A DNA stretch of 64,000 bases. It comes from a virus. Location of the stretch: positions 1-64,000 of IMG/VR virus record IMGVR_UViG_3300044259_000094. One strand, written 5' to 3'. This document shows positions 16,166 through 64,000 of this stretch, piece after piece. The notes beneath the pieces are model-generated. The model had not been told where the DNA came from and did no database searches. It saw only the letters and a list, made by a program, of their open reading frames with translations. Numbering within the stretch: position 1 is the stretch's first letter; each line of letters opens with the position of its first letter. Position numbers and translations under genes: made by a program.

Positions 16166-16204
16166 CAGATAGCTCCCTTGTGAGCGTGATTTGCTGTCAT
16201 AGAC

Positions 16205-16238
16205 AGAATGCGCGATTTTGTAAGGGAGTAGTCGGGCT
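16205..16238 (-). promoter_or_regulatory. phage promoter motif
   Basis: AGCCCG ACTA CTCCCT N12 CATTCT. Confidence 0.6.
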
Positions 16239-19413: not shown

Positions 19414-19456
19414 GCAATGCTCTCTTTTGTGTGTGATACAACGAACTAGAGCGCTA

Positions 19457-19490
19457 ATAGTAGCGCTCTAGTCGAGGGATTAGCTGGGGT
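19457..19490 (-). promoter_or_regulatory. phage promoter motif, -10 at hairpin apex
   Basis: ACCCCA GCTA ATCCCT N12 TACTAT; 12-bp perfect inverted repeat 19445-19472. Confidence 0.75.
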
Positions 19491-31224: not shown

Positions 31225-31740
31225 TCAATCGCAGCTCGAAGAACCGGAATCGGAGCTGCAAGAACTGGACGACGAGCTGCTGGACGATGACGAGCAGCTA
31301 CCACCGCTGTAGCTCGGGCTGGAGTCATACGATGAAGAACGCGACGAGCTGCCGCAGTCATCCCAGGATGAACCAGAACGAGAAGAGGACGAAGGGGCCG
31401 GCGTGCTGTGAATCGGGTTCAGCGGACTGATTGGATTCGACGGGTTGACCAGAGAGTCGTCACTACGACTTTGGCTCGACGTTGCGCTACGGCTACTGGT
31501 TACAGATGGGCCAGACCCACTTGTTGAGCGCAAACGGTCGCGCTCACGGCGTTCACGTTCCAGTCGACGATTACGGTCTTCGCGCGTCTGCTCGGCCTGT
31601 TTCATGCTTTTCAGGTCAGAGCGGGCTTCATCACGTTGACGGAGCGCACGACGGCGCCCCGCTTCGAGGATGATAGCCACGCCGGTTACTGTTGCGAGGG
31701 CAATACCCGACGCAATTTCACTCAGTGTGGTTTCGATCAT
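31225..31740 (-). CDS. membrane-anchored protein with Ser-rich low-complexity tail
   Basis: N-terminal TM helix, poly-Ser C-terminus. Confidence 0.7.
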   Translation of the reverse strand: MIETTLSEIASGIALATVTGVAIILEAGRRRALRQRDEARSDLKSMKQAEQTREDRNRRLERERRERDRLRSTSGSGPSVTSSRSATSSQSRSDDSLVNPSNPISPLNPIHSTPAPSSSSRSGSSWDDCGSSSRSSSYDSSPSYSGGSCSSSSSSSSSSSCSSDSGSSSCD

Positions 31741-31958
31741 TGCTGGTTCTCCAGATTGCATACACGCTCGTGCAGAGCGTTGTCGGCCGCATTAACGACC
31801 GAAGAAAGGGTCGCAACAGAGGTATTCAGCGAGTCGATGCTGACCTTGAAACGACTGTTCTCGGCCTTGAGCGATTCGATTGCCGCGTGCAGCTTGATTT
31901 GCTGCCCGGCGAGCCAAATGACCGATATGGCAATAGCGATGACAAGCAGTGTAGCCAT
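31737..31958 (-). CDS. small membrane-anchored coiled-coil protein
   Basis: N-terminal TM helix; coupled at both ends. Confidence 0.65.
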   Translation of the reverse strand: MATLLVIAIAISVIWLAGQQIKLHAAIESLKAENSRFKVSIDSLNTSVATLSSVVNAADNALHERVCNLENQQ

Positions 31959-33166: not shown

Positions 33167-33205
33167 TTGGGTTGTCTCGCTGTTTATGTGAGTGAGTCGA
33201 GCGCT

Positions 33206-33239
33206 ATTAAAGCACTCGCTCACAGGGTTTACGCGGGGT
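33206..33239 (-). promoter_or_regulatory. phage promoter motif, -10 in hairpin loop
   Basis: ACCCCG CGTA AACCCT N12 TTTAAT; imperfect inverted repeat around the -10. Confidence 0.7.
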
Positions 33240-33242
33240 TTG

Positions 33243-36200
33243 TTAGCTGAAAATGTCAGCTACCTGCTGAAACACTTGGTCGAGCAGGGCTTGTTTGGAC
33301 CCGTCGAAGCAAATCATAGCCGGGTTGAAGCCGGATACAACCGTGCAGTCGGACTTTGGATCGAAGAAGGACTTGCCACAGTTGTCCTCCCAGCCACCCT
33401 TGATATCCGGGACGAGCTGTCTTACAGATTTGCTACCCAGAGCTACGATCACCGGTGGTTTCAGAAGGGCAATCTCCCGCTCAAGGAACTTGCCACAACC
33501 GTTCGCAGTGACGTTGGTAATCTCCTCGTCTTTCAGCTTGCGGGCTTTGATGTAGCTGGTCACATAGACTTCGGACATCTTGAGACCTGCTTTGGTCAGG
33601 GACGCCTTGATGAAGTTCGCGGTGTCACCCACCATCATCTGACCCTTCTCTTCCTCTTTGTAGGATGGGCCATCCACGACGATCATGACTTTGGGTTTCT
33701 TACCCAGGACTGGTTGAGGGTGGTTGCGACCAATGAACGGACACCCGTCACAACCCTTGTAGGTCTGGTAGTCCTCAACGATCTGAACCAGCTCAGCACT
33801 CACAGCGCCGGTGACATCGATCACCCGTTCGGCTTTGACGTTGCTAACCACAATCCCGGGTAGCAGCTCCTTCTGGTCACGCAACCGATCTGGGTGACGG
33901 CTATCAAGTTGCCCGGGTTCGATCTTGCTGAATGCACCGATCTTGTCGAGTTTCTCCTGTGCGGTCTTGTTGCACGCACGACGGTCGACCTCAAGAATCA
34001 TTTCGGCCTTGTTCTTGAAACCACGACCAAGCTTCTTGCGTGCAGCCAGAATAGCTGCGGCCGACTTCTCAGACAGACCCTTCACAGACTGGAACGGTGC
34101 ATAGAGGATCTTCTGACCCCGTGCGCTATCGAAACCAATCTCATAGCGGTCAGAGCTATGGTTGATATCAGGAGGGACGATGTAGATGTCACTGGCTTGA
34201 GCGTCTTTGGCAAGACCAGGCAGCTTCTGCTCATCCAGAATCGACAGACAGGCTGCATAGAACGCTTCTGGGTAGTACACCTTCACCCACATGGTCATGT
34301 AGCTGATCAGGGTGTACGCCACAGAGTGAGACTTGTTGAAGCCATAGCCGGCGAACTTCTCGATCTGCTCGAAGATGAAGGTCGCGGTCGCATGATCCAG
34401 CCCGGACGTAGCGATACAGCCGTCAACGAACTTGTCGCGTTGCTCAGCCATCTTCACCGGGTCTTTCTTACCCATGATCTTTCGCAGGCCGTCTGCTTCT
34501 GGGAAGGTGTAACCCGCAAGGTCACGGGAAATCTGCATGACCTGTTCCTGATAGACCATGACGGACATCGTAGGCTCAAGCGCAGCTTTCATGTTCGGGT
34601 GAAGATACTCGGGTTCCTGGAACTCCTTCTTGATGGCGACGTACATTTCCATCAGACCCGCTTGCATTGGACCCGGGCGATACAGAGCTGTTGCGGCTAC
34701 ACAGTCCTCGAATGTCAACGTACCGGTTGATCCAAGCTCCTTGAGAAGCTTCCGCATACCGCCGGATTCAAACTGGAATACGCCGTAGGTCTTAGCCTCT
34801 GCGAACGCCTGCAAAACCTTCTTGTCATCAAGAGGCAACCTGGTGAAGTCTACAGACACGCCAGAGCTTTCGTGGATGTAGTCTTTGCAGAGACGGAGAA
34901 TGTCCAAGTTGGACAGACCCAGTACGTCGAGCTTGATCAAGCCAAAGTCTTCCACGACCCGCTTGTCCCAGTTGACGATACCCACACCTTGTCTGTTGTT
35001 GACTACGCCACGATGGACGATCTTGTCGCCGGCTACAACGACACCAGCTGCGTGCTTGGCAAAGTTCTTGAACGTACCTTGCAGACCCACAGACGTTGCC
35101 CAGACTTGAGGATGGTTGAGCGCAAGCTTCTCAAGCTCCGGGACATACGCGACCGCTTTCTCAAGCGGAACAGGTACACCAGATTCTTTGGGCACCAGCT
35201 TGGAACAATCGTACTCGCTCTCATGCAGGCCATACGCTTTGCCCACCGCTTGAATCGCACCAGCGCCAGCAAGGGTGTTGTAGTTGGCGATCTGGACAAC
35301 GTGATCGTTGCCGAACTTGCTTACAAGGTGGTCAACGATATCCTGGCGTCGGCTGGACATGAAGTCCAAGTCAACGTCTGGCAAGTCGATACGTTCCGGG
35401 TTGATGAAACGTTCGAAAATCAGGTTGAAGCGGATCGGGTCAACGTCAGTGATGCCCATGAGATACGCGACAAGGCTACCGCCGACAGAACCACGACCCG
35501 GGCCTACCATGATTTCGTTTGTCTTCGACCAGTTCACGACATAGTGAACCAACTGGAAGTAGGCTTCGAACTTCATCTTCTGGAGGATGGACAGCTCGTA
35601 CTTGAGACGGTCTTGATACTTCGGCAGATCAGCAGACGCCGGCTTGTAGCCGAAGACTTCCGTACCCAGGCGATCCTTCCAGCCTTGCTTACAGATGGCT
35701 ACGATATCTGCCATTGGTGTAGCGGACATCGTAGGGAGACTGGGCTCAAGTTTCTTCCATTGGTACGGATGATCCTTGAAGTAGTCGTTGGTCTTCGCCA
35801 AAGCATCGTTGAGCCACTCAGTAACGTTGTCACCGTCGGCTCCGTCATCCACGCGATTGCAGATCCGGTCGACAGTCTTCGCTACTTGGTCGAGCCACTC
35901 AGCTTGCTCCAAGACATAGAGGTCTTCTGGAGGTTCACGCCGCCACATGCTGTCTGCTTTGTCGTGGGACAGGATCGAGTTCATCGTCGACCGGAAGCTG
36001 GACTCGCCTTTCTGATTGAGGGTCGGTCGAGTGACGATAGCTTTGATGCCCCGTTCCTCGAATGCTTTGTAGCTCTGCGCATTGTGCGCGTCGTAATACA
36101 TTGAGTTGACTGGGACGACTTCTGCGAGCACTTGTGACACGTCCAAATGATCGCACAGCATGTCTAGTAACTTATCTTTGTCTCGCAGCGTAAACGCGCT

Positions 36201-36641
36201 GTAAGCGCTTCCCAGAGTCATCGTCAGGTTGCCCCGAGACACGAACTCGATCAGCTCTTCGCGGCTGATTTGTGCGCGTGCAGGCTTGGTGCAGTAGTGG
36301 TCTTCCTGCTGTGCGAGGGTCATGAGTTCACACAGGTCACGGAAGCCTTGTTCGTTGCGGACAAACAAGGTCGTGACGAACACCGGGTTGGGCTTGCGTT
36401 TCGGCTCACCACGCTTGGCTGCTACCCAGGTGAGGTCTTCGACCACAGCCATTTGCACGCCCAGTCCGATACGCAGGGTCTTTGCCTTGCTCATGAGAAT
36501 GGGCATGGCGTCGATCGACTCAACGTCCGTTACCACTAAGCCATCATACCCAGCAAGCTCAGCCTTTTTGACTAGAGCTTCTGGGTCATAGATGCTTTCG
36601 CCAAGACTGAAATGTGTCTTGGCTCCTAGCAGGTTATTCAT
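33243..36641 (-). CDS. dnaE: DNA polymerase III alpha subunit with C-terminal uracil-DNA-glycosylase-like domain
   Basis: GPGRGS.GGSLVAY, FERFINPER.DLPDVDLDF, HAAGVV, KLDVLGL, FNKSH; C-terminal family-4 UDG-like region. Confidence 0.95.
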   Translation of the reverse strand: MNNLLGAKTHFSLGESIYDPEALVKKAELAGYDGLVVTDVESIDAMPILMSKAKTLRIGLGVQMAVVEDLTWVAAKRGEPKRKPNPVFVTTLFVRNEQGFRDLCELMTLAQQEDHYCTKPARAQISREELIEFVSRGNLTMTLGSAYSAFTLRDKDKLLDMLCDHLDVSQVLAEVVPVNSMYYDAHNAQSYKAFEERGIKAIVTRPTLNQKGESSFRSTMNSILSHDKADSMWRREPPEDLYVLEQAEWLDQVAKTVDRICNRVDDGADGDNVTEWLNDALAKTNDYFKDHPYQWKKLEPSLPTMSATPMADIVAICKQGWKDRLGTEVFGYKPASADLPKYQDRLKYELSILQKMKFEAYFQLVHYVVNWSKTNEIMVGPGRGSVGGSLVAYLMGITDVDPIRFNLIFERFINPERIDLPDVDLDFMSSRRQDIVDHLVSKFGNDHVVQIANYNTLAGAGAIQAVGKAYGLHESEYDCSKLVPKESGVPVPLEKAVAYVPELEKLALNHPQVWATSVGLQGTFKNFAKHAAGVVVAGDKIVHRGVVNNRQGVGIVNWDKRVVEDFGLIKLDVLGLSNLDILRLCKDYIHESSGVSVDFTRLPLDDKKVLQAFAEAKTYGVFQFESGGMRKLLKELGSTGTLTFEDCVAATALYRPGPMQAGLMEMYVAIKKEFQEPEYLHPNMKAALEPTMSVMVYQEQVMQISRDLAGYTFPEADGLRKIMGKKDPVKMAEQRDKFVDGCIATSGLDHATATFIFEQIEKFAGYGFNKSHSVAYTLISYMTMWVKVYYPEAFYAACLSILDEQKLPGLAKDAQASDIYIVPPDINHSSDRYEIGFDSARGQKILYAPFQSVKGLSEKSAAAILAARKKLGRGFKNKAEMILEVDRRACNKTAQEKLDKIGAFSKIEPGQLDSRHPDRLRDQKELLPGIVVSNVKAERVIDVTGAVSAELVQIVEDYQTYKGCDGCPFIGRNHPQPVLGKKPKVMIVVDGPSYKEEEKGQMMVGDTANFIKASLTKAGLKMSEVYVTSYIKARKLKDEEITNVTANGCGKFLEREIALLKPPVIVALGSKSVRQLVPDIKGGWEDNCGKSFFDPKSDCTVVSGFNPAMICFDGSKQALLDQVFQQVADIFS

Positions 36642-38386: not shown

Positions 38387-38442
38387 AGGTTGTATCCTTG
38401 TTTACGTTAATTTGTACTGCGTTGTTTTGTTTCAGTGAGCGC

Positions 38443-38476
38443 ATTTTGTACGCTCACTGATGGGCGTTCAATGGGT
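38443..38476 (-). promoter_or_regulatory. phage promoter motif, -10 in hairpin loop
   Basis: ACCCAT TGAA CGCCCA N12 CAAAAT; 10-bp inverted repeat 38432-38460. Confidence 0.65.
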
Positions 38477-44959: not shown

Positions 44960-45166
44960 TTACTCCTCGCTATACAGATCGATGCCGGCCGCTTTCAGAT
45001 CGAGGTCGTCAGGCAGAGTCAGAGTGCGAGAGTAGCCTTCGTTCATACCGAACCATTCAGGCTGTTCCTCGCACAGGCGATCCAGAAGATCGTAATCGGT
45101 GGTGAAACGCACAGCTGAGCTGCCGTCACCCAAGTCTTCCGCGAACAGATAAACTTTTTGAGCCAT
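44960..45166 (-). CDS. small acidic hypothetical protein
   Basis: AAGGA SD, TGATG coupling. Confidence 0.7.
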   Translation of the reverse strand: MAQKVYLFAEDLGDGSSAVRFTTDYDLLDRLCEEQPEWFGMNEGYSRTLTLPDDLDLKAAGIDLYSEE

Positions 45167-46611: not shown

Positions 46612-46646
46612 TACGTTTCCTCTATGAATGAAAAGACTCAAGCGCG

Positions 46647-46680
46647 AGATTACACGCTTGAGTCTGGGGTGTAGCGGGTT
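46647..46680 (-). promoter_or_regulatory. phage promoter motif, -10 in hairpin loop
   Basis: AACCCG CTAC ACCCCA N12 TAATCT; 11-bp inverted repeat AGACTCAAGCG/CGCTTGAGTCT. Confidence 0.75.
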
Positions 46681-50299: not shown

Positions 50300-50581
50300 T
50301 TACTTCAAAGGACTGGGTTTGACTTGCTGGGTTTTGATGCACTCAAGCACTTGTGTGGCGCACAGCTTGAGTTCGGCTTCCAGAACGTTAGCTCTGGAAA
50401 TCCAGTCTTCATTGCTTCGAGGTTGATTGAATCCCGGGAGTGGGCATGGTGTCAGAGCGCACCGTTCCACCTTGCTCTCCGATTCCGTATAAACGGGGAT
50501 CGGTTGTGGCTTCACGGATGAACAGCCGACCAAGAGCATCAGGTACAGGCTGAGCGAGGTAATCGCGGACTGCTTGGTCAT
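50300..50581 (-). CDS. o-spanin (Rz1-like lipoprotein)
   Basis: LLVGC lipobox, Pro-rich, overlaps the Rz-like gene. Confidence 0.8.
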   Translation of the reverse strand: MTKQSAITSLSLYLMLLVGCSSVKPQPIPVYTESESKVERCALTPCPLPGFNQPRSNEDWISRANVLEAELKLCATQVLECIKTQQVKPSPLK

Positions 50582-50879
50582 TCTCTTTTACCTGCTGGAT
50601 GGCTTGATCGAGCTTGCGGCCTTGGCTACGAATATCGCCCTTCAACGCCTCAAAGTCCACACGAATTTCTTGAACCTGGCTGATGACCGACTCTCTGTCG
50701 GTGTACAGTTTCGTTTGCGACTCTAGCGCAGCTTGAAAACTAGCGCTCTGAGTCGCTAGAACGCTGTTTTTAGCGCGTTCAACGTCGAGCGCTGATCTGT
50801 AGTAGATAATTGCAGCGCTAAGCGCTATGAGCACGCTAAGCGCTGCTAGCGCAGCTGTGATTTTCGCTTGAAGATTCAT
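50409..50879 (-). CDS. i-spanin (Rz-like)
   Basis: N-terminal TM helix, coiled coil, YL.QPVPD; follows endolysin. Confidence 0.8.
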   Translation of the reverse strand: MNLQAKITAALAALSVLIALSAAIIYYRSALDVERAKNSVLATQSASFQAALESQTKLYTDRESVISQVQEIRVDFEALKGDIRSQGRKLDQAIQQVKENDQAVRDYLAQPVPDALGRLFIREATTDPRLYGIGEQGGTVRSDTMPTPGIQSTSKQ

Positions 50880-51370
50880 TGGTAGGGACTCAGGCAGAGT
50901 TCTTGTTCACGAAGCCGGCGCTCCCATACTCCCCAGCAGTTGTTCGAACGGACAGAGCAGTCTAAGCCGCCTGCGAACTTCCAACGTGGGAGCTGATTGC
51001 AGGCTCCGATTATGTCGCCTGAGTTGGCTTTCTTGAGAAGAGTTGAGGACTTGAAATTACCACCACCGGCGTTGAAGACAAAGCTGGTGAAGCTAACCAG
51101 TACGGGTTCAGGCAATTCAACCTTTGTGTTCTGGAGAACGACTTGCATCGCCTTCCAGATGTCGGTGCGGAACAAGGTTTCGCACATGGCGTTCGTGTAG
51201 ACCAGACCCTTCTTGACCTCCGGGCCAGTATGACCCCGACAGATAGTCCAGACCTTCACGCTGTCTTGATAGGCTTTGAGACTGATACCTTCTTCTGGAC
51301 CGATGAATGCCGCCGAAGCGGCAATAGCACCGGTGAAGGCGGTAGCAAGTAAGGTCTTTTTAACGTCCAC
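50876..51370 (-). CDS. SAR endolysin (phage lysozyme, GH24)
   Basis: Ala/Gly-rich N-terminal SAR segment; EG...AYQD...VWTIC.GHT catalytic triad; RR..E..LC. Confidence 0.9.
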   Translation of the reverse strand: MDVKKTLLATAFTGAIAASAAFIGPEEGISLKAYQDSVKVWTICRGHTGPEVKKGLVYTNAMCETLFRTDIWKAMQVVLQNTKVELPEPVLVSFTSFVFNAGGGNFKSSTLLKKANSGDIIGACNQLPRWKFAGGLDCSVRSNNCWGVWERRLREQELCLSPYQ

Positions 51371-52273: not shown

Positions 52274-52616
52274 ATAGTAACTCCATCGGCATATACGGCC
52301 AGATCTTTATTTCGATTTTGTGAGCCGCTTCAATAGAGAAGCTCAGTTCGATGTCCGAGCCATCCGCTTCGTACTCCATATCGTCAATGATTACCGACGC
52401 ACCCTCGGGTACACCACTCAGGATGTTGCCATTCAGAGTAGCGTTCAGGATAGGGCGATTGACAACCTCGCCCATGCTGACGTACTGCCGAGTCATATCG
52501 GCTTCCTTTTCGACGAACGACTTGGCTTCCTGGTTCACTAGGCGGATGGAGCCTGGAGACGAATGCGTCTCCAGGATCTCACCAGTGACCGGGTCGTACA
52601 CGGTCAGGTAGTTCAT
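52263..52616 (-). CDS. tail-associated protein
   Basis: YDP.TGEI; coupled to the tail-tip gene. Confidence 0.7.
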   Translation of the reverse strand: MNYLTVYDPVTGEILETHSSPGSIRLVNQEAKSFVEKEADMTRQYVSMGEVVNRPILNATLNGNILSGVPEGASVIIDDMEYEADGSDIELSFSIEAAHKIEIKIWPYMPMELLYEN

Positions 52617-55600
52617 TACTTCATCGCTCCAATAATGGTGATGCCGTAGGACGACTGGGCATCACTGTCGACGGTTACATAGTAGCTACCAGCGCCAACA
52701 TAGAAGCTATAGCTTGCGCAGGAGGTAGACGGGTTGTAATCGCCTTGGTAGTAGAAGCCATTAGTGTAACCCCCAACGACACGGCTAAGAAGGGTGCCGG
52801 CGGAGTTATACAGGTTGATGTAGATCGGCTGACCACCAATGTATTTCGACGACCGGTTAGCCGTCACGATGATCGCCAGGTTAACGGCAGCTGGGTACGA
52901 AATCACAGCAGTCGCACCGCCGTTGCCGTTAACTTGAGCGTAGTACGGGATCGTTACCGCGTTACCCGCAATCTTGATCGTATCGACAGCCAGATCCTGA
53001 ATTTTGGCATTGGTAATATGCCCGTTCATGATGTGGGTGTCGGCGATCTGAGCCGTACCAATCTTCGCGTAGGTGATAGCCGCATCAGCGATGTGAGCAG
53101 TGGTGATGGTTGCTGCAGCGATAGTGGCTACGTTCAGACGCACGATCCCGCCAACAACTTGGAACGGAGCAATCGCGTTGCTGTTGCCCGGGTTGATCAT
53201 CACAATCCGATCCGCCTGGAAGGCGATCTGAGACTGAGTGATACCCTGACTGGTGTTCTGGATACCAATACCCATACCAGCGAAGTATTGAGTGCCGTCA
53301 GAGGACACCTGAACCTTAGCAGTCCAAGAGGCGCTCAACTTGCCATCCAGCGTAGACAATGCGGTCGATGTGGTGGAAATCGAAGCGGTGTTGGTACCCA
53401 CGCTGCTCTGGAGAGTGCTAATCGAGGACGCCTGAGAGGTGATGTTACCCTCGGCAGTAGTCACGCGAGTAGTCAGGCTGTTCAGAGCGGTCGCTTGAGC
53501 CTGTGCCTGGGTGTAGCTGGTACCGGCTTCGAAGGTCGAAGGGGTGGTGTTGGTACCGATCTGCTTCTCGATCATGATGCGGTCGAAGAAGATATCGCGG
53601 CCAGAAACACCCGATACGTTAGGCTGTAGCGCTACAGCCATCTGAGTGCCGGAGAAGGTGGTAGCGTTGGTCATATCAATGACCATCGAGTAGCGCACCC
53701 AGCCAGTGGTCAGGGAGAACAGAGCCGAAGTGGTGCTACCCACAGTAGCGGTCGAGGTCACATACCGGGTGAAGGCCCGGATCTGATGACCAGCAACGCT
53801 CGCCTTGGCGTAGAACGACAGGATGTACTTCGAGTTGTCGTAGCTGATCGGGAACGAGCCGACCGCACCAACCACGTTAGAGGTATGCAGATAGCAGGCG
53901 ACGGTGGTGCTGGTGCTAGAGGTCGCAAACTTCAACGCATAGCCGCCCAGAGCAGCGCTATCTACAACGGTATCGTAGGTGAGACCGGTGCTGATTGCGC
54001 CAATGGTAGGCTTGTTTGGACCGAACACGGAGTATTCGGACGGGTTCAAGTTGCTACCAGAACCACCGATACCACCCACAGTGCTTTGCAGCGCGGTCAC
54101 GGCGTTACCCTGAGAGGTGATGGTACCCTCAGCAGTGGTTACACGAGTGGTCAGCGCGTTCAGAGCACTGGTGTCTGCCTTGTTGGCTACGGTGTTGTTC
54201 AGGCTGGTGATCGCAGAACCCTGCGAAGTCAAAGTACCTTCGGCAGTGGTTACGCGAGTATCCAGAGTCTGGATAGCGGCAGCCTGAGCGCTCAGCTGAC
54301 CAGAACGTTTGGTGAACGACGGTTTGCTGATGTAGAAGTCACCAGCAGAGCCAGCTGAAACCCGGAGGTTCATGGCTACACGCAGGCAGTCCGGGGCGAC
54401 AGTCCAGGTACCAGTCACCTTAACCCAAGCGTTTGCGGTCTGGCTTGTCTGAACACCGTCGCCACCAGTAGTTGCCCAGGTATGCCCGATAGAGGCGTTA
54501 GCGGCATCGTATTGCTGAACCCAGATACCGAATACCCGTGCGGCTACGGTGCTGTAGATGTAGACCTCGAAGTCGTAGACCTCACCGCCGGTGGTCATCA
54601 TGTCGTGAAGCCGGCTGCCACCGAAGCGGACGTTAGGCGACACAATGAAACCGCTGTAGTTGTTGCCGGTCGACTGGGCTACAGACCACTTAACAGCTCG
54701 ACCACTCGGGCAGCCTACAGGAGCGTCAGCTCTCTGAACTACCGTTGCGGAAGACGTGTTAGTCATACCAGTGCTTGTCGCGAAGGTTGGATCTTCAATG
54801 AAGTTCTCGGTCGCGATGTTGCCCAAGCTGCTAGTCAGGTTGGTAATCGAACCACTTTGAGAGGTGATGTTGTTCTCAGCGGTGGTTACACGAGTGGTCA
54901 GAGCGGTCAACGCCGAAGCGTCAGCCTTACCGTTCACAGTCGTGGTCAGGTTGGTGATCTGAGTTGCCTGAGTGGTGTTCACACCTTCGGCCGCAGTTAC
55001 GCGAGCATCCAATGCAGTCTGCGCAGTTGCCAGGCCAGCTACTTCGGCTGCGATTGGGCCGGCAGCAAACACAGAAGGCTCAGTGCCGCCGGCGATCTGA
55101 CGCTCGATCATCACCGAGTCGATGGTTACTTCGGTACCAACTACACCGTTCCGGTTGAAGAAGAAGGTGTAGCCAACCTTGGTTGCAGCGGTAACGGTGA
55201 TTACACCGGAGTAGCGAGCGCGAGTCGTACCGATGTTGAAGGTCGAGGTCATGCGCTGAGCACCGTCATACATGCTCAACTGCACCTGAGAGCCGTTTGG
55301 CGACGAGGCGTAGAACGAGCAGATGTAGGTACCCGGGTCCAGAGGCAGGTTCCAACCGGCAGCGCTGTTGCTTGGCGCCAACATCAGGTACGCACCGCTG
55401 TTAGTGGTGGTAGACGTGGCCTTATAACCGAACCCGCTAGTTGCTTCCGCTACAGCTACCCCAACTCGGCTTGCGTTCGAAACGGTAGTAGCCGGGATAG
55501 AGGTGGAGGTCACCCAGCTGTAGGTCGAAGCCAGCAGGTTAGAGCCGTTACCAGCGATGTTACCCAGGGTAGCCGAGACGTTGGTCAGGGAAGTACCTTG

Positions 55601-58600
55601 GCTGCTGATAGTACCTTCTGCGGTGGTTACGCGAGTGGTCAGCGCATTCAGTGCCGATACATCAGCCTTGTTACCAATGCTGTTGTTCAGGCTAGTAATC
55701 GCGGTGCCCTGCGAAGTGTTCACACCCTCGGCAGCAGTAACTCGGGTAGTGAGAGCAGTTACAGCCGACGCATTCAGAGCGCTCTGACGGAAGCTATTGC
55801 CCGGCTCAAATACCGACGGAGCGGTGTTAGAACCAATAGCCTCTTCGATCATGATCTTGTCGAGCCAGAAGGTGCGACCAGAAGTGACCGATACGTTGGT
55901 CTGCAAGCAGAGCATCATCAGATCACCAACATGGGAAGCGGAGGTCATATCAATGACCGCGCTGTATCGTACCCAATCGGTAGTCAGAGCTTGGTTTTGA
56001 CTGGAGATGGTCGAGTTCACACTCGCATTATCCGAGGACCGGATGGTCTTCAAGAACGGAGCGATGGTGTGACCAGCTACAGCAGCTTTCGCGTAGTAGG
56101 ACAGGATGTATTTGGTGCGCTTGAACCCCATGTTGGCGTGAGCATAGATGATGCTCGAACCAGCAGAAGGCGCGAAGTACATGGTGCTGTTGGTGGTGTT
56201 GTTGGTGGTGACCTTGAAAGCGTAACCGCTAAACGCTGCAACATCAGCCTCAACACCGACGGAGTACGCCGAGTTGGTCGAGGTTACAGGCGCGTCAGAA
56301 GTGAAAGCGGAGTATTCGGCCGGCATCATGTTAGAGCCGGTACCACCGATAGCATTCACCGAGTTGTTAAGGTTCGTGATGCTGGTGCCTTGAGAGGTGT
56401 TAACCCCTTCGGCAGCAGTTACACGGGTAGTAAGAGCCGTCAGAGCCGAAGCGTCAGCTTTTCCGGTCAGGCTGTTGTTCAGGTTGGTGATCGCAGAACC
56501 CTGAGAAGTCAGGGTGCCTTCTGCGGCAGTTACCCGGGAGTCCAGCGACTGAGTTGCAGCACCCAGAGCAGCAGTCTGGATGTAAGAGCTACCAGGAACA
56601 AACACAGATGGATTCGAGTTCGAACCAATCATTGGCTCGACCATGAATCGGTCCCAGTACACAACGCGACCACTTACGCCAGATCGGTTGAACTGGATAC
56701 CCAGGCTCATCCGGTCTTTGTTGTCGTAGGCAGAGGTGTCGTGGTCAACCACTACGCTGTAGCGAGCCCAATCAGTGGTCAGAGTGTGAACCACAGTAGT
56801 CGGGTTAGCGGTGCCGCCGGCGGCGTCCTTAGCGCGCAGGAACAGAGACACCTGATGACCAGCAGTCTCAGCCTTGGCGTAGAACGAAATGATGTACTTA
56901 CCGCGCTTGAACGGCATACGGTAGTTTTCATACACGTCGGTACCATTTACGGTGTAAATGGTCACACTGTTGGTGGTGTTCACCGAAGTGGTCTTGTAAA
57001 CAAACCCGCCCAAGCCTTGAGGGTCAGCTACCACAGTACCTACGTTAGTTGCGTAGGTCATTGGCGGTACAGTCGCATCCATGAAGCAGGCGTACTCTGC
57101 TGGCACCAGGTTGGTACCGGCACCGCCAATCGCGCTCACCGAAGTGTTCAGGTTGGTGATGGAAGTACCCTGCGAGGTGTTCACACCTTCGGCGGCAGTA
57201 ACCCGGGTAGTCAGGGCATTCAGCGCGGAGGTATCCGCTTTACCTGCTACGGTGTTGTTCAGCGAGGTGATCGAGCTACCTTGAGAAGTCAGGGTACCTT
57301 CCGCTGCGGTAACGCGAGTATCCAGAGCCTGAGTAGCAGTTGCCAGCGAGCGCTCAGCGGCGTTCTGGCGGGAGAGCGACAGGTTGGCAACCCACATCTT
57401 GAAACCGACAACTGCAGGCGCGTCTGGTACCAGATACAGGGAAACCTCAGTGGTCTGCGCAGGAACTGTGACCTGCACAGACAGCTTCTGCCAACCACCT
57501 GCGGCCATATCATAGCCCAGGATGCGAACGTTGCCGTTTACGCTTGTAGAACCGTTGATCCAGTAGGTAATAGCGATTTTGCCCGCGTTCAGCGTGGCGT
57601 TCTCGCAGTACATCTGGCACTCAACATTGAGCACTTCACCCGGGGTTGCTGCGGTACGGTTACTACCGTTGGTGAAGTACAGCGCGTTACCACCCCAGCC
57701 CGATACGTTACCTGCTTTCGACATGCACAGCAGACGGTTAGCGGGGGCAGCGGCGGGTACACCGGCGTCGGTCTTGCTGAAATACTGAATTGGGAAGTCA
57801 GCAGTACCGCTGATCAGGTCGCCGGCCGCGTTGAAGTCTGGGTTGCGCAGCAGGTTGTCCTGACTGGTGTTAGCCATGCTGGTGTTCAGGCTGGTGATCG
57901 AGTTCGCCTGAGTAGTGTTCACGCCCTCAGCCGCAGTAACTCGGGTAGTCAGAGCAGTCAGAGCAGAAGCATCGGCCTTACCAGCCAGCGAGCTGGTCAG
58001 GTTGGTGATCGAGGTAGCCTGCGAGGTGTTTACACCCTCTGCACTGGTCAGACGGACATCCAGGGCCTGAACGGCAGAGCCAAGTGCAGCTGCTTGACGC
58101 AGGCTGTTACCAGGCACGAATACCGAAGGAGCGGTGTTGCTGCCAACCATTGGCTCCAACATGAAGCGATCAAGGTAGATAACTCGACCTGCTACCCCGG
58201 ATCGGTTGATCTGGATGCCAACGATCATCTTGTCTTTGTCGGCAAAGCCAGAGCCAGTCAGATCCACAACGCTCGAATACCGCTGCCAAGAGGTTGTCAG
58301 AGCATCTTGTGGAGCGCCGGCGGAGCTTGCAGCGGAACCAGCGGAGTTACGAGTGCGTGCGAACACCGCAATGGTGTGACCTGCAGTATCGGTTTTCGCG
58401 TAGTAGGACAGGATGTACTTACCCGGCTTGCACGCGATGTTAGCGGAAGCATAGTCCTCTGGGGTTGGCGACAAGTAGATCGCAGCACTGGTGCTGGTGT
58501 TTGCGCTCGTTACCTTGAGTGCATAGCCATTGAAAGCCTGTGCATCAACCACAGTCTCGGACAGGGAAGTTGCATAGACGATATCCGGCTTGGTAGCACC

Positions 58601-61600
58601 GAAGGTCGAATACTCTGCCGGAACAAGGTTAGTACCGGTACCACCGATTGCATCCATGGATGCAGTCAAGCTGGTGATCGAGTTGCTCTGCGAGGTGATC
58701 GAGTTCTCAGCAGTGGTTACACGGGTGGTCAGCGCATTCAGAGCGGTAGTGTCCGCTTTACCCGCTACCGAGTTGTTCAGCGAGGTGATCGAGTTACCCT
58801 GGCTGGTGTTCACACCCTCAGCTGCGGTCACGCGAGTAGTCAAAGCGGTCAACGCGCTAGCGTCTGCTTTGCCGGCCAGGCTGTTGTTCAGACCGGTGAT
58901 TGCGGAACCCTGGCTGGTGATCGTGCCCTCGGCATCGGTGACGCGAGCGGACAGAGCGCTGGTGGCATCCGCTTGGTTGCGAGCCTGTACCGAACGACGC
59001 TGAATGACTGGTCGACCAACCCATACGGTGAGTGGTTCAGCGTGAATGCTTGCGCGCAGGGTGATGTTCAGGCTGACAGCAGTCGCCGGGATGGTGATCG
59101 AGCCAGAGATAGTAACCCACTGACCGTTTACGCCAGTGATGCTGGTCGACGAAGGCGTCAGCCAACCGTGGTTAATCGAAGTGCCATTCAGGCTGTACGG
59201 CTGTACCCAGATACCGAACTGACGATCACTGGTGCCTTCACGATATACGGTGAAGGATACGTCGTATACCTCGCCTTCCTGAACAGCCAGGCGACCAGTA
59301 GTATCACGCAGCAGCACAGGCCAAGCGGTGCGCTGATAGATATTGCCGGTGGAGCTTGCCGCATAGACGAACTTCAAGAGACGTGGCGAAGGTGCAGCCG
59401 CAGGCGCCGATGCGTCAGTGCGATCAACGTTGGTGATGGTGACATTGGACACGGTAGGGAAAGCGTTGCGGCCATCCGTGAAGTCCGGGTCATACATCAG
59501 GTTCTCTTGCGGCAGAGCATTCAGACCAGTCTGAATAGTCGTGATCTGCGAACCCTGAGCGGTCAGCGTAGAGCCCTGCTGAGTAACGGTGTTGTTCAGC
59601 GCGGTCAGAGCACTGGCGTCAGCTTTATCGGCCAGGTTGTTGGTCAGAGTGGTGATCGAACTGGACTGGGACGTGTTCACACCCTCAGCCGCAGTTACGC
59701 GAGCCTCAAGAGCGGTGTTCGCGGTAGCGTTGGTCAGAGTTTGACGGAAGCTATCACCCAGAACGAACGCAGATGGCGAAGTGTTCTCACCGATCATAGG
59801 TTCGATCATGATCTTGTCGAGCCAGAAGATGCGGTTTGCTACTGCGGACACGTTGGTCTGCAGACACAGCAGCATCATGTCGCCAACATGAGTAGCGGAG
59901 GTCATATCGATGACCGCGCTATAACGAGTCCAGCTGGTGGTCAGCGCTTGGTTCTGAGTAACGATGGTCGAGTTGACGCTCGAACCGTCGGACGAAATCG
60001 ACTTGAGGAACGGTGCGATGGTGTGACCAGCTACTGCCGATCGAGCGTAGTAGGACAGGATGTACTTGCCACGCTTGAAGCCCATGTTCGCGTGAGCATA
60101 GGTGATCGACGAAGGGCCGGATGGTACGAAGTACATCGCACCGTTAGCGGAGGTCAGTGCGGTGATCTTGAGAGCGTAACCGTTGAACGTCGCAGCATCC
60201 GCATCACCGACAATCGAGTAAACGGCGTTGCTCGACAGAACAGGCGGGTTCGCCGCGAATACGTTGTACTCAGCCGGCAGCATGTTCGAACCTGCGCCAC
60301 CGATGTTACCCAGAGTTGCTTGTACGCTGGTCAGGCTGTTGCCCTGAGAAGTCAAGGTGTCTTCCGCAGCAGTAACCCGGGTGGTCAGCGCATTCACCGC
60401 AGAGACATCAGCTTTACCAGCCAGGCTGTTGTTCAGCGAGGTGATGCTGTTGCCTTGAGAGGTGATGTTCCCCTCAGCGGTAGTCACTCGGGTAGTCAGA
60501 GCATTGAGTGCAGAAGCGTCGGCTTTGGTAGCCAGAGCGCTTGCGTCAGCCTTGCTAGCCAGCGAAGTGTTCAGGTTGGTGATCGAGGTAGCCTGAGACG
60601 TGTTAACGCCTTCTGCTGCCGTTACACGCGCATCCAGAGCAGAGGTAGCCGAAGCCAGACCTGCAATCTGCGAAGCAGTCGGGCCAGCTACAAACGGGGA
60701 AGCTACGTTGCTTTCACCGATACGCTTCTCCAGCATCACCGAGTCAATGATGACCTCAGTACCAGTTACACCACCAACGTTTGGATACAGGGTAACTGCG
60801 ATCTTGGCCGAATCAGTGACAGTAACCGGCAGAGAGTAGCGAGTGCGGGTCGCGCTCAGAGCGGTAGTGGTGGTGTAGCGGCTTGCACCGTTCCACAGGT
60901 TCGCACGGATCGAGGCACCGGTAGTGGTCGAAGCGTAGAACGAAACCAAGTAGATGCCGGGTTCAATCGGGATGTTGTAGCCAGCAGCGTTGTTGCTTGG
61001 GCACAGCATGAAGAACAGGCCAGCGCTGTTGGAGCCTGCGGTGAACTTGTAACCGAAACCGCTGATAGCTTCTGCCACAGCCACACCCACAACGGTAGTA
61101 CCGGTGTTCAGCGGAGTGGTTGGCAGGGTAGCGCTGGTCAGCCAGGAGTATTGAGCCGGCACCATGTTGCTGCCGTTACCCGCGATGTTACCCAGAGTGG
61201 CTTGCACGCTGGTCAGCGAGTTGCCTTGCGAGGTGATGGTACCCTCAGCCGCAGTGACACGGGTGGTGAGTGCGTTAACGGCGCTCGCATCTGCTTTACC
61301 AGCAACACTGTTGGTCAGGTTGGTGATTGCAGTGCCTTGCGAAGTGTTCACACCTTCGGCCGCAGTTACACGGGTCGTCAGAGCCGTCAGAGCGGAAGCG
61401 TCAGCTTTGCCGTTCAGAGTGGTCTGAATGCCATTGATGGTCGACGCCTGAGAAGTCAGGGTGCCATTGATGGTACCGATGTTGGTTTCAGCGGTGGTTA
61501 CACGCGCAGCCAGGCCGTCGGCCGAAGACACAACTGAGCCGGCGTCACGCCAGTAGGTACCGTTTGGTGGAGCGTTGGTACCGGCAGCGTTTGCTGGAAC

Positions 61601-64000
61601 GTTGATCTTGGCTTGATACAGAGAGCGACCAACACGGATGAACTGATCTTTCGTGTACGCCTTGTTCTTGTCGTACTCGGTTGCATCCAGAATGGTGTTC
61701 ACCTGGGTTTGCAGACCGGCCGCAGTCGCTTCGATAGCGGTCTTGTTGTTCGTTACCTGAGTTTGCAGACCGCTGACGGTGCCTTCGATCGCCGTCTTGT
61801 TGTTGTTCACCTGAGTCTGCAACGCGGTTGCGGTGTTCTTGACGTTGGTGATTTCAGTGTTGACGTTGCCGATCGCCGTGTTGGTCGCAGCCAGGTTATT
61901 GTTAACCTGAGTTTGCAGAGCGGTCGCGGTGTTCTTGATGCCGGTAATCTGACCGTTTACATCAGTCAGAGTAGCGTTCACGCCGGCCATCTGATTAGCT
62001 ACGTCAGCCTGAATGTTAGCCAGGTCGCCCTGAACCAAATCAACTTCGGTGTTCAGGTTGTCGAGAGCGCTGTTGGCGTTAGCCATTGCCTGCTCAAGTT
62101 CTTCCTGGCCGATCTTGATGTCGGAGATGTCTTCGATTGGCTTAGCCAGTTCTTCTTCGAGGTCAGTCTTGGCAATCAGACCGGCAATCGCAGACACGCC
62201 GGCCTCGGAGTTGAAGTCCGAAACCATGCCACGCTTGTTGACGGTACGCACCCAGTACCAGTATTTCATCAGACCCGGGATACCAGTTCGGGTGTAGGTG
62301 TTGCTCGGGGTACGGTCGAGGTAGTAGGCGGTATCTACGTCATCAACGGTGTTCTCGAAGATTTCCACATAGTCGAAGTCAACGTCACCGCTGTTCACCC
62401 AGTTCAGGATGATCTGACGGAAATCGCCCACTGCGGTCAGGTCAGTAGGAGCCTTCGGTGGGTTCAGAGTGCCAAGGGTCGTGTAAGTCCCTACAAGCTC
62501 GCTAGAGAGCTTTCCGGTCACAGAGATACCTACGACCTTGAAGTCGTAGATCACGCCACCAGAGACGTTCTCAAGCGTGAAGGCTGGCTTGCTGACCTTC
62601 GTGCGCACCCAACCCGATGCACCTGCACCAGAGTTTGCACGCCAGCTGACGTAGTAGCTTGGCGACTTGCCTTCCCACGATACTTCCAGCTTGGTACCCA
62701 GCTGACCAGGAGCTACCAGATAGGTGAACTCCTCGATCTTGATGAACTCCGGGTTGGAGTTGGTTGGGTCGAGGATGGTGGTCGGCTGAGATTCGAGGTT
62801 CAGACCCTGTTCAATCGAGGCGTACTTCGAAGGGTTGTGGTCGACCACGCTGATCACAAATTGACCAGGGGTATCCGACTGCGACACACCTACGACACGC
62901 GCCAATTGAGGAACGAGGTTTGGCTCAGTGATGATCCAGGTAGCGTTTGGCTTTGGCTCTACGCTGAGCTGGGTCACGAAGGTCAGAGTATCGGTCTCGC
63001 CAATCTGGTTGACGGCCACTTCTTCGAACTTGCCATCGGGCATCTTGATGGCGATCTTGCTACCGCCCGCAACATTGACAGTCGCATCCAGCGTGCAACC
63101 GGTACGGCTCGAAGCTTTCAGACGACCGCCGTTACGCTTGCCGGCCTTGTACTGGTCTTGAATCTTGACGATATCGCCAGGCGCGCACTGTACGCCCTCG
63201 AAGCCCACTTCGAAGGTCATGACGTTGGTTTCTACGGACTCGGTGTACAGAATCCACAGACCAATACGGTGCGCTTGTGCGCGACTGGTGCAACCGAAAG
63301 CTACGGTGTCGAGCTTGCGGTAGCCCAGCTTGTTGATGAGGTCTTTGTCCTCAACGTACTCGATCTTCTGCTTGTACTGGTCGAGAGGGTCGTTCCAGGT
63401 TACATGCACGACGCTGTGACGGTCCTTACGAGCAGAACCGGTACGGTTGAATACGCCATCGATGACGTTGGAGTTGTTGTACAGGAACTGAGCGTCAGCA
63501 GGGGAGTCCTGAGTCACCTGTACAGCGCCGTTCGCCCAGTACGACATACCCCGGAATACAGAACAGATGTCCTGAATAACCTTGTAGGCGTCACGCTGTG
63601 CAGCGATCACGGTGTTGATAGTGAAACGAGGCTCTTGGCCGCCCTTGCCGTCAGTCACCATACCGTCGCAGTAGCGAGCAATGGTGTACAGCTTGGCGGA
63701 GTTGACCTGAGAGGCGTTGATGAACTCACCCAGACCGTAGCGCTTGTTTAGCAGCAGGTCACGGAGAATCCACGCAGGGTTGTTCGTGTAGCCGATCTTG
63801 AACGAGCCATCCCAGATGCCGGTGTAGGTACGGGTATCCGGGTTGTAGTTCGAAGGGATCTGAACGTACAGACCGTCAACCAGATACGACCGGGACGGGT
63901 TGTCATTCAGCTGCTCGGCGTTGATCTTGATCCCGCACATTACCGAGTTAGGGTAGGTGAGCTGGTGATCCAGAACCTCGTAGTACGAATCGATGTAGGT
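52616..64000 (-). CDS. giant tail-tip / central fibre (lambda J-like) protein, 5'-truncated by the window edge
   Basis: J-like N-terminal region (TNNPAWIL.DLL...RYGLG, GCTSR.QAHR.G.W), FN3-like domains, coiled-coil repeats, ten CBM-like modules, DUF1983-like region; frame stays open to 64000. Confidence 0.93.
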   Translation of the reverse strand, partial: TYIDSYYEVLDHQLTYPNSVMCGIKINAEQLNDNPSRSYLVDGLYVQIPSNYNPDTRTYTGIWDGSFKIGYTNNPAWILRDLLLNKRYGLGEFINASQVNSAKLYTIARYCDGMVTDGKGGQEPRFTINTVIAAQRDAYKVIQDICSVFRGMSYWANGAVQVTQDSPADAQFLYNNSNVIDGVFNRTGSARKDRHSVVHVTWNDPLDQYKQKIEYVEDKDLINKLGYRKLDTVAFGCTSRAQAHRIGLWILYTESVETNVMTFEVGFEGVQCAPGDIVKIQDQYKAGKRNGGRLKASSRTGCTLDATVNVAGGSKIAIKMPDGKFEEVAVNQIGETDTLTFVTQLSVEPKPNATWIITEPNLVPQLARVVGVSQSDTPGQFVISVVDHNPSKYASIEQGLNLESQPTTILDPTNSNPEFIKIEEFTYLVAPGQLGTKLEVSWEGKSPSYYVSWRANSGAGASGWVRTKVSKPAFTLENVSGGVIYDFKVVGISVTGKLSSELVGTYTTLGTLNPPKAPTDLTAVGDFRQIILNWVNSGDVDFDYVEIFENTVDDVDTAYYLDRTPSNTYTRTGIPGLMKYWYWVRTVNKRGMVSDFNSEAGVSAIAGLIAKTDLEEELAKPIEDISDIKIGQEELEQAMANANSALDNLNTEVDLVQGDLANIQADVANQMAGVNATLTDVNGQITGIKNTATALQTQVNNNLAATNTAIGNVNTEITNVKNTATALQTQVNNNKTAIEGTVSGLQTQVTNNKTAIEATAAGLQTQVNTILDATEYDKNKAYTKDQFIRVGRSLYQAKINVPANAAGTNAPPNGTYWRDAGSVVSSADGLAARVTTAETNIGTINGTLTSQASTINGIQTTLNGKADASALTALTTRVTAAEGVNTSQGTAITNLTNSVAGKADASAVNALTTRVTAAEGTITSQGNSLTSVQATLGNIAGNGSNMVPAQYSWLTSATLPTTPLNTGTTVVGVAVAEAISGFGYKFTAGSNSAGLFFMLCPSNNAAGYNIPIEPGIYLVSFYASTTTGASIRANLWNGASRYTTTTALSATRTRYSLPVTVTDSAKIAVTLYPNVGGVTGTEVIIDSVMLEKRIGESNVASPFVAGPTASQIAGLASATSALDARVTAAEGVNTSQATSITNLNTSLASKADASALATKADASALNALTTRVTTAEGNITSQGNSITSLNNSLAGKADVSAVNALTTRVTAAEDTLTSQGNSLTSVQATLGNIGGAGSNMLPAEYNVFAANPPVLSSNAVYSIVGDADAATFNGYALKITALTSANGAMYFVPSGPSSITYAHANMGFKRGKYILSYYARSAVAGHTIAPFLKSISSDGSSVNSTIVTQNQALTTSWTRYSAVIDMTSATHVGDMMLLCLQTNVSAVANRIFWLDKIMIEPMIGENTSPSAFVLGDSFRQTLTNATANTALEARVTAAEGVNTSQSSSITTLTNNLADKADASALTALNNTVTQQGSTLTAQGSQITTIQTGLNALPQENLMYDPDFTDGRNAFPTVSNVTITNVDRTDASAPAAAPSPRLLKFVYAASSTGNIYQRTAWPVLLRDTTGRLAVQEGEVYDVSFTVYREGTSDRQFGIWVQPYSLNGTSINHGWLTPSSTSITGVNGQWVTISGSITIPATAVSLNITLRASIHAEPLTVWVGRPVIQRRSVQARNQADATSALSARVTDAEGTITSQGSAITGLNNSLAGKADASALTALTTRVTAAEGVNTSQGNSITSLNNSVAGKADTTALNALTTRVTTAENSITSQSNSITSLTASMDAIGGTGTNLVPAEYSTFGATKPDIVYATSLSETVVDAQAFNGYALKVTSANTSTSAAIYLSPTPEDYASANIACKPGKYILSYYAKTDTAGHTIAVFARTRNSAGSAASSAGAPQDALTTSWQRYSSVVDLTGSGFADKDKMIVGIQINRSGVAGRVIYLDRFMLEPMVGSNTAPSVFVPGNSLRQAAALGSAVQALDVRLTSAEGVNTSQATSITNLTSSLAGKADASALTALTTRVTAAEGVNTTQANSITSLNTSMANTSQDNLLRNPDFNAAGDLISGTADFPIQYFSKTDAGVPAAAPANRLLCMSKAGNVSGWGGNALYFTNGSNRTAATPGEVLNVECQMYCENATLNAGKIAITYWINGSTSVNGNVRILGYDMAAGGWQKLSVQVTVPAQTTEVSLYLVPDAPAVVGFKMWVANLSLSRQNAAERSLATATQALDTRVTAAEGTLTSQGSSITSLNNTVAGKADTSALNALTTRVTAAEGVNTSQGTSITNLNTSVSAIGGAGTNLVPAEYACFMDATVPPMTYATNVGTVVADPQGLGGFVYKTTSVNTTNSVTIYTVNGTDVYENYRMPFKRGKYIISFYAKAETAGHQVSLFLRAKDAAGGTANPTTVVHTLTTDWARYSVVVDHDTSAYDNKDRMSLGIQFNRSGVSGRVVYWDRFMVEPMIGSNSNPSVFVPGSSYIQTAALGAATQSLDSRVTAAEGTLTSQGSAITNLNNSLTGKADASALTALTTRVTAAEGVNTSQGTSITNLNNSVNAIGGTGSNMMPAEYSAFTSDAPVTSTNSAYSVGVEADVAAFSGYAFKVTTNNTTNSTMYFAPSAGSSIIYAHANMGFKRTKYILSYYAKAAVAGHTIAPFLKTIRSSDNASVNSTISSQNQALTTDWVRYSAVIDMTSASHVGDLMMLCLQTNVSVTSGRTFWLDKIMIEEAIGSNTAPSVFEPGNSFRQSALNASAVTALTTRVTAAEGVNTSQGTAITSLNNSIGNKADVSALNALTTRVTTAEGTISSQGTSLTNVSATLGNIAGNGSNLLASTYSWVTSTSIPATTVSNASRVGVAVAEATSGFGYKATSTTTNSGAYLMLAPSNSAAGWNLPLDPGTYICSFYASSPNGSQVQLSMYDGAQRMTSTFNIGTTRARYSGVITVTAATKVGYTFFFNRNGVVGTEVTIDSVMIERQIAGGTEPSVFAAGPIAAEVAGLATAQTALDARVTAAEGVNTTQATQITNLTTTVNGKADASALTALTTRVTTAENNITSQSGSITNLTSSLGNIATENFIEDPTFATSTGMTNTSSATVVQRADAPVGCPSGRAVKWSVAQSTGNNYSGFIVSPNVRFGGSRLHDMMTTGGEVYDFEVYIYSTVAARVFGIWVQQYDAANASIGHTWATTGGDGVQTSQTANAWVKVTGTWTVAPDCLRVAMNLRVSAGSAGDFYISKPSFTKRSGQLSAQAAAIQTLDTRVTTAEGTLTSQGSAITSLNNTVANKADTSALNALTTRVTTAEGTITSQGNAVTALQSTVGGIGGSGSNLNPSEYSVFGPNKPTIGAISTGLTYDTVVDSAALGGYALKFATSSTSTTVACYLHTSNVVGAVGSFPISYDNSKYILSFYAKASVAGHQIRAFTRYVTSTATVGSTTSALFSLTTGWVRYSMVIDMTNATTFSGTQMAVALQPNVSGVSGRDIFFDRIMIEKQIGTNTTPSTFEAGTSYTQAQAQATALNSLTTRVTTAEGNITSQASSISTLQSSVGTNTASISTTSTALSTLDGKLSASWTAKVQVSSDGTQYFAGMGIGIQNTSQGITQSQIAFQADRIVMINPGNSNAIAPFQVVGGIVRLNVATIAAATITTAHIADAAITYAKIGTAQIADTHIMNGHITNAKIQDLAVDTIKIAGNAVTIPYYAQVNGNGGATAVISYPAAVNLAIIVTANRSSKYIGGQPIYINLYNSAGTLLSRVVGGYTNGFYYQGDYNPSTSCASYSFYVGAGSYYVTVDSDAQSSYGITIIGAMK

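Follow-up and report, generated by a model that had tools for sequence, protein, structure and literature searches.

Functional DNA sites can lie inside coding sequence: the replication origin (ori) of phage lambda is embedded in gene O, and KorB operators (OB) and ParB sites (parS) are dispersed over their replicon. Here we describe five short islands from which the dinucleotides CC and GG are almost or entirely missing. They lie in the first 64 kb (hereafter, the window) of a single 95,733-bp metagenomic contig from sediment (IMG/VR virus record IMGVR_UViG_3300044259_000094; 54% G+C; nearly all genes on the minus strand), and the longest of them occupies the start of an i-spanin gene. Like lambda ori and the KorB and ParB sites, the islands are arrays of short palindromes—here AGCGCT, which the KorB operator core AGCSGCT resembles—in tolerant coding segments, and a ParB-N protein is encoded in the contig. 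They differ from those sites in having neither an extended operator consensus of 13-16 bp nor an AT-rich unwinding element (G+C 49-56%), and we know of none among these systems that excludes a dinucleotide.

Under-representation of a short word because something reads that word is familiar from motif avoidance—of restriction-modification (R-M) sites or of the protospacer-adjacent motifs (PAMs) of CRISPR systems—and in this respect the islands are alike. The depletion of CC in Pseudomonas aeruginosa phages is genome-wide and slight (8.27% versus 8.74% CC; PMC12174588), and depletion of PAMs or sites has also been described in PMC4246573. Whereas such published cases extend over whole genomes and are small, exclusion in the islands is total and local (110-250 bp). 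It affects essential genes at conserved, roughly periodic positions and goes together with enrichment of a palindrome.

DNA that enters the cell early offers a further comparison. Only the pre-early DNA of phage T5 is a productive CRISPR target (PMC5389539), and in the leading region of Murciavirus the early-injected DNA decides sensitivity to type I R-M (PMC12455610). Local freedom from a target motif in these first-step-transfer regions is matched by a sigma70-driven cassette of 1.2-1.8 kb in relatives of our contig (see below); the islands, by contrast, lie 4-65 kb from the position of that cassette, amid replication and lysis genes and without sigma70-like promoters. The single-strand interruptions (nicks) of T5 resemble the islands in their purine-preceded GCGC core, their kilobase-scale spacing and their occurrence in a siphovirus with long terminal repeats (PMC11256456), but T5 sites carry CCC/GGG flanks (CCCTGCGC) and no dinucleotide is purged around them. 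The left terminal repeat of T5 (1-10219, the first-step-transfer DNA) holds 54 of the 89 GCGC sites of the first 50 kb; GC and CG are raised 1.4-1.7 fold there, and CC/GG is not depleted.

In the literature we found no description of an exclusion of a dinucleotide that is total, local, intragenic and conserved in position, and the Nickievirus papers that we located mention neither nicks nor islands. New here are islands that are intragenic and roughly periodic, and the enrichment of AGCGCT in them.

Five islands purged of CC and GG on both strands

The islands are duplex stretches of 110-250 bp that have been purged of CC and GG on both strands by strong selection, which is conserved in position and overrides protein sequence. 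Across the contig, 12% of positions begin a CC or GG (0.12 per nt), and a geometric model predicts ~0.03 gaps of at least 100 nt without either, as opposed to the four that we observed (181 nt at 50700-50881, 111 nt at 5810-5921, 109 nt at 25256-25365 and, beyond the window, 101 nt at 90757-90858). Segments of 150 nt hold 18.1 CC/GG on average (standard deviation 3.9), and only six loci in the contig come down to three or fewer. Five of these are the islands that a first-pass annotation of the window had listed by position and CC/GG count, and its list proved right (Table 1). The i-spanin island has the longest uninterrupted run without CC/GG anywhere in the contig, and the remaining locus, at 90.7 kb, is a terminator region outside coding sequence.

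As a null model, genes were called and each codon was redrawn from its synonymous set at the frequencies of genome codon usage given the base before it, to give 200 simulated genomes. None of the 200 came as low as the observed island counts, and with the same peptides none fell below 4-8 CC/GG. Codon shuffling, which the first-pass annotation had named as a possible refutation, thus did not reproduce the CC/GG-free runs. The depletion is specific to CC/GG (ratio 0.07), all other strand-symmetric dinucleotides having ratios of 0.8-1.75: GC and TA are the most raised, GC and CG are up 1.3-1.7 fold, AA/TT and AG/CT are up 1.2-1.3 fold, and TC/GA is down. Island G+C content is 49-56%, a reduction of 2-5 points, compared with 11 points in the big cassette of the relatives. 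The purge is strand-symmetric, has sharp and conserved boundaries and extends to codon junctions, non-coding islands and terminators. Genome-wide, CC/GG is under-represented by ~20% in the whole phage family (rho 0.76-0.82).

Table 1 Islands, their genes and related CC/GG-free elements. Positions refer to the window unless a relative is named; expected CC/GG counts derive from synonymous resampling.
Feature	Position	Strand	Expected CC/GG	Observed CC/GG	Remarks
Island 1	5812-5920		10.9	0	3′ end of HNH endonuclease gene and region upstream of next gene
HNH endonuclease gene	5856-6416	minus			phrog_5200, E=5.6e-55; last ~65 nt plus downstream spacer form island 1
Island 2	16013-16132		10.6	1	5′ part of small orphan gene, upstream of thyA
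Small orphan gene	15848-16165	minus
Island 3	25258-25407		15.2	1	inside SbcC-like gene
SbcC-like gene	24526-26502	minus			phrog_77
Island 4	36058-36210		13.8	3	inside dnaE, codons ~144-195
dnaE	33243-36641	minus
Island 5	50701-50881	no strand	18.3 ± 3.5	0	181 nt; codons 1-60 of i-spanin gene
Rz-like i-spanin gene	50409-50879	minus			156 aa; host of island 5; PHROG match and translation
o-spanin gene	50300-50581				overlaps i-spanin gene; PHROG match
Endolysin gene	50876-51370				PHROG match
sbcC island orthologue	nickie 65517-65776				position conserved; also in G003, G002
Pre-thyA island orthologue	nickie 75151-75411				runs from promoter to about +250; also in G003
HNH-end island orthologue	nickie 85526-85697				position conserved
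CC/GG-free cassette	nickie 103799-105098; G001 139-1566; G002 34780-36568; G003 518-1757
Promoter-like family, examples	3849-3897, 9302-9360, 19408-19476, 33170-33225, 38396-38462, 46619-46666	minus

Recoding is evident at the level of codons, where the shift to otherwise rare choices reported in the first-pass annotation is borne out by codon counts. Together, CTA and TTA make up 36% of island leucine codons versus 5% genome-wide (CTA, 23% versus 3%; TTA, 13% versus 2%), with CTG at 10% versus 51%. Serine AGC accounts for 62% versus 29%, GCG and AGC are doubled, and GCC (0 of 42 alanine codons), ACC (0 of 13 threonine codons) and TCC are never used. The 3-bp compositional periodicity is weakened within islands, as expected of recoded sequence, and long antisense shadow open reading frames (ORFs) do break at these points, those at 24586-25260 and 34872-36104 ending there. 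Outside the islands TTA, CTA and TCA codons are almost wholly avoided, which accounts for an antisense ORF of 2351 aa (54482-61537) that shadows a minus-strand ORF of 4012 aa, presumably a tail fibre (52616-64000, continuing to 64654).

Moreover, glycine, proline and tryptophan together occupy a single one of 219 island codons (12.4% genome-wide), so the constraint reaches into protein sequence. Island peptides are helical segments rich in alanine, leucine and serine, and they are the most variable, fastest-evolving parts of their host proteins. Selection on the DNA that overrides codon bias, as first proposed, is therefore strongly supported and goes further: amino-acid choice is overridden as well, the purge persists at the same dnaE codons while the peptide diverges, and the effect is both specific to CC/GG and strand-symmetric.

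The previously noted accumulation of AGCGCT is likewise real. The contig carries 19 such sites in ~2 kb of islands, where 2.6-4.3 are expected, and 47 outside, near the expectation of 33-43; this corresponds to ~1 site per 105 nt in islands versus 1 per 2000 nt elsewhere (~20 times denser). The core AGCGC is present in every island, and no other hexamer is as over-represented in the big tracts of relatives as AGCGCT (z=12.6). Tested against a CC/GG-free synonymous null, AGCGCT remains in excess in the spanin, 16.0-kb and sbcC islands (P 0.001-0.03; P=0.001 both for the spanin island, with 5 sites versus 1.1, and for the 16.0-kb island). This null, together with Markov expectations, rules out for these three islands that the palindrome is a mere by-product of the purge. 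Two further candidate motifs were discarded: AGCGCTYACAG occurs in three islands of the contig and is inconsistent among relatives, and GGGAAGC at island starts is partly protein-coded.

With respect to the individual loci, the gene labels Rz-like i-spanin, SbcC-like protein and DnaE were confirmed, and the i-spanin, o-spanin and endolysin genes of the lysis locus match phrog_89, phrog_456 and phrog_7. The spanin island has AGCGCT sites at 50742, 50788, 50814, 50821 and 50839. Three more are found in the sbcC island, which falls in the coiled coil directly after the CxxC hook. Island 2, with four, forms a ~210-nt zone with 5 CC/GG together with the CC/GG-free promoter-leader run at 16178-16223. 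What is left of CC/GG in the dnaE island is a GGG and one conserved proline codon, CCA.

Conservation among Nickieviruses and further CC/GG-free elements

The nearest named relatives of the contig are Nickievirus siphophages of Pseudomonas syringae (nickie, hairong, Nican01, ZY21 and phiK7B1), with 73-84% DnaE identity. Nickie and three IMG/VR genomes (G001, G002 and G003) are collinear with the contig, which lacks ~13 kb that they have and whose completeness according to CheckV is 85%. Further relatives were gathered by alignment search (four loci) and a metagenome scan (one more relative), and a single-sequence search of viral contigs for relatives returned no match.

When related phages are compared, as the first-pass annotation had suggested, four of the five islands prove conserved in position. 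That of dnaE is found at the same codons in eight of eight genomes (this contig, nickie, hairong, G001, G002, G003, L036 and the IMG/VR copy of nickie) and is kept down to 59% protein identity; in the codon alignment, the peptide varies widely around the one conserved proline CCA and CC/GG stays absent. The homologous DnaE segments of Rhizobium phage V1VFA-S and Stenotrophomonas phage BUCTxx99 have no island, containing glycine, proline and ordinary CC/GG counts. Islands occupy matching gene positions in nickie, at nt ~414-589 of dnaE and nt ~1000-1270 of sbcC, in the small gene before thyA and at the end of the HNH gene.

The spanin island, in contrast, is lineage-specific and absent from nickie and the three IMG/VR genomes, where the first 180 nt of its orthologues hold 14-26 CC/GG. 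Taking the lack of glycine, proline and tryptophan in the protein as a proxy for the purge in the DNA, spanin homologues with at least 69% identity are free of these residues in their first 80 positions despite many substitutions; those with at most 61% identity are not. In a close environmental strain, the 207-nt spanin segment has the same length but has diverged, its flanks being ~91% alike, and no similar DNA or peptide that could mark a donor was found elsewhere in five genomes. The spanin island is thus a recent gain in one lineage that was then kept through 30% protein divergence, indicating that islands can arise and are then maintained.

Successive islands are spaced by 10.2, 9.3, 10.8 and 14.7 kb. 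The quasi-regular placement described in the first-pass annotation holds for the four conserved islands, which lie 10.2 ± 0.8 kb apart (P ~0.005-0.01 for regularity versus uniform placement); the spanin island it had flagged is a recent, lineage-specific gain. No island falls outside the early/replication half of the genome.

The islands follow the same no-CC/GG rule as the immediate-early cassette, the promoter-leader regions and the terminators of this phage group. Every relative has a tract of 1.2-1.8 kb virtually without CC/GG. Its two or three conserved orphan genes encode proteins with zero glycine, proline or tryptophan, and in nickie it has sigma70-like promoters. Judging from synteny, this cassette would be expected near the end of our contig, so it may be missing only through truncation. 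Over the whole nickie genome, the cumulative GC skew reaches its minimum at ~104 kb, the site of the cassette, with a very small amplitude; GC skew was too weak for mapping origins.

We also observed a promoter-like family on the minus strand of the window, of the form (A)AACCCC-N7/8-CCC-N13-TAnAAT/CAAAAT and without a –35 element. Its –10 box is often in the loop of a GCGC-rich inverted repeat, followed by a CC/GG-free leader with a GG-less Shine-Dalgarno sequence. Since the phage's own promoters have conserved CC(C) boxes and then CC/GG-free runs, a CC-reading factor is plausible in this phage. Terminator stems, too, are built without CC/GG. Beyond the window, at 90757-90858 of the contig, a non-coding CC/GG-free element of ~100 nt separates converging genes, with inverted GGSAAGCT/AGCTTCCC at its borders. 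Inside it, AGCGCT makes up a terminator hairpin, and G001, G002 and G003 have an equally long run (98-99 nt).

Independently of the islands, among the variants listed for a related environmental strain (run X3), 218 nt are missing at 31737-31956 and 150 different letters replace 153 nt at 44969-45123. Both loci are hot spots of small insertions, deletions or replacements that distinguish strains.

What might read CC and GG

From the purge we infer that some factor reads CC/GG. Our preferred account, to which we commit only tentatively, is that the islands are AGCGCT-rich protein-access sites kept clear of a factor acting on CC/GG. As candidate cis-acting sites on the phage chromosome, they could serve as internal origins, clamp-loading sites or nick sites. 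A sequence-specific protein—possibly one of two ParB-N proteins, the HNH nuclease or a replication initiator—would bind the AGCGCT clusters, and the flanking ~100 bp would stay clear of whatever acts on CC/GG elsewhere, be it a mark or coat that the phage itself produces or an enzyme of the host working on exposed DNA. Such sites would be placed in mutation-tolerant segments (DnaE linker, SbcC coiled coil and spanin N-terminus) about every 10 kb of the early region. In its most explicit form, which we consider conceivable but doubtful, some mark, coat or attack would act at every CC/GG, and the roughly periodic unmarked stretches of ~100-250 bp in essential genes would be internal origins or loading sites of the AGCGCT binder.

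Several lines of evidence support access sites: the purge is significant given the peptides, is specific to CC/GG and keeps its position while sequence diverges; AGCGCT is dense in islands, which sit in the early half at ~10-kb spacing; the same rule covers the sigma70-driven orphan early genes with zero glycine, proline or tryptophan in four relatives; and two ParB_N genes as well as an ABC/SMC-like ATPase gene are present. For one ParB-N (CTPase-fold) protein, the match is clear (PF02195, E=2e-14; residues 37-131 match Noc/Spo0J/ParB N-domains). Apart from these three proteins, Pfam recognized only an RNase T-like exonuclease, a gp32-like single-stranded DNA-binding protein, ThyA, DHFR and a kinase among 28 early proteins.

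Other observations weigh against access sites. Most of the 28 early proteins are without a Pfam match and many remain orphans. No TGT/DpdA, C5-methyltransferase or N4/N6-methyltransferase gene was found in the contig or two complete relatives, the search giving no match in G000, G001, G002 and G003 while control genomes were positive. The original suggestion of landing pads free of a CC/GG-directed mark or coat is still the broadest fit despite the absence of these three enzyme families. The dnaE island has one AGCGCT only, which is no enrichment over the CC/GG-free synonymous null, and around AGCGCT there is no extended consensus: what the sites share is confined to the 6-bp core and a weak A/T flank. 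The regular spacing is one inherited arrangement and so carries the weight of one observation only; the lack of any island in the ~35 kb of structural genes argues against a general chromosome-organizing role. Why ~100 bp without CC/GG should be needed rather than a short site is not explained, and protein binding, the CC/GG mark and the coat are themselves proposals.

Alternatively, the islands might be target-free zones: segments hit or sampled most by a host defence that requires CC/GG, fast-evolving and stripped of every PAM. The lead candidate would be the 5′-CC PAM of type I-F CRISPR-Cas, another being a frequently cutting nuclease or nickase. We regard this as unlikely, if worth serious consideration. 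Immunity through the complete loss of a strand-symmetric element of 2 bp is exactly what a PAM would allow; CC/GG is low across the whole family and below the codon-aware null in islands, and Pseudomonas phages targeted by type I-F show slight CC depletion (PMC12174588). That early-entering DNA decides targeting in T5 (PMC5389539) and R-M sensitivity (PMC12455610) fits the early cassette of the relatives, and the high variability of island peptides, with a spanin island that diverged between well-matched flanks in the close strain, points in the same direction. However, a PAM-free patch of 150 bp in the middle of dnaE cannot protect the genome because ~11,500 CC/GG remain elsewhere in it, and both the AGCGCT enrichment and the ~10-kb spacing are left unexplained.

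A mutational footprint is improbable in our view. Here, DNA that is often single-stranded—in origin bubbles, R-loops, nicks or gaps—would suffer a CC/GG-specific lesion (deamination, guanine ADP-ribosylation or oxidation) that erodes these steps wherever the protein tolerates it. The location of islands in tolerant, fast-evolving protein segments, the rise in AA/TT and AG/CT, the lowered G+C content of islands and big cassette and the survival of the one strictly conserved proline CCA in dnaE would all be in line with such erosion. Yet total absence over 181 nt, and over up to 1.8 kb in relatives with ORFs intact, is too clean for mutation-selection balance; decay of C to T predicts neither the rise in GC/CG nor the fall in TC/GA, and island boundaries are sharp and conserved.

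Comparison with T5 raises the equally improbable alternative that the islands could be nick sites of the T5 type, with single-strand interruptions at Pu^GCGC (here A^GCGCT), perhaps made by the HNH nuclease, and a spacing that recalls that of T5 nicks. The T5 record gives 5′-NPu pGCGCN-3′ as the major-nick consensus, to which the AGCGC of every island would conform; Nickieviruses, like T5, have long terminal repeats (PMC11256456), one island abuts the HNH endonuclease gene, and the pre-early region of T5 is GCGC-rich as well. Against this, three T5 sites read CCCTGCGC|T within ordinary, CC/GG-containing DNA, the rho of CC/GG in T5 is about 1, with no depletion, and nicking AGCGCT, a palindrome, on both strands would break the duplex.

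Signals in RNA or translation—rare-codon pauses, mRNA structure, or avoidance of GGA/Shine-Dalgarno-like words or of proline and glycine codons for fast early expression—are a very unlikely cause. Rare leucine and serine codons do cluster in islands, leaders use GG-less Shine-Dalgarno sequences, and three islands fold stably (z about –3 versus shuffled sequence), but the scores are inconsistent (–0.8 for dnaE and –1.3 for sbcC), no conserved RNA structure emerged, and both CC and GG are gone, even at codon junctions and in non-coding islands and terminators. A consistent sigma70-type promoter was not found within the intragenic islands either.

The idea that gyrase or a nucleoid protein wraps the islands as flexible sites, also raised in the first-pass annotation, found no support and strikes us as highly improbable. 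A wrapping footprint would be of the islands' size (110-270 bp), the flexible steps TA and CG are over-represented where GG/CC is absent, and topological domains of ~10 kb are similar to the island spacing. However, classical gyrase cleavage consensus sequences hold GG/CC steps, WW dinucleotides in islands show no 10-11 bp periodicity (normalized power 2-4), and the structural-gene half has no islands. Finally, chance or amino-acid composition has next to no probability: although island peptides are the kind of Ala/Leu/Ser-rich helices that might happen to be without CC/GG, the synonymous resampling (0/200) rules it out, and distant homologues have glycine, proline and normal CC/GG.

If the access-site account is true in its most explicit form, a dinucleotide code at the DNA level makes segments of DnaE, SbcC and spanin evolve without glycine, proline and tryptophan. 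Codons ~144-195 of dnaE and the SbcC coiled coil are concrete loci at which the reader could be sought in cultured Nickieviruses, phages that are candidates for the biocontrol of P. syringae, and local, codon-aware dinucleotide scans can reveal hidden DNA-level signals within genes. Should the islands be functional, a reader of a two-base DNA step would act during infection, exerting a pressure strong enough to reshape essential proteins, and the islands would represent a new class of cis element or counter-defence in phage biology.

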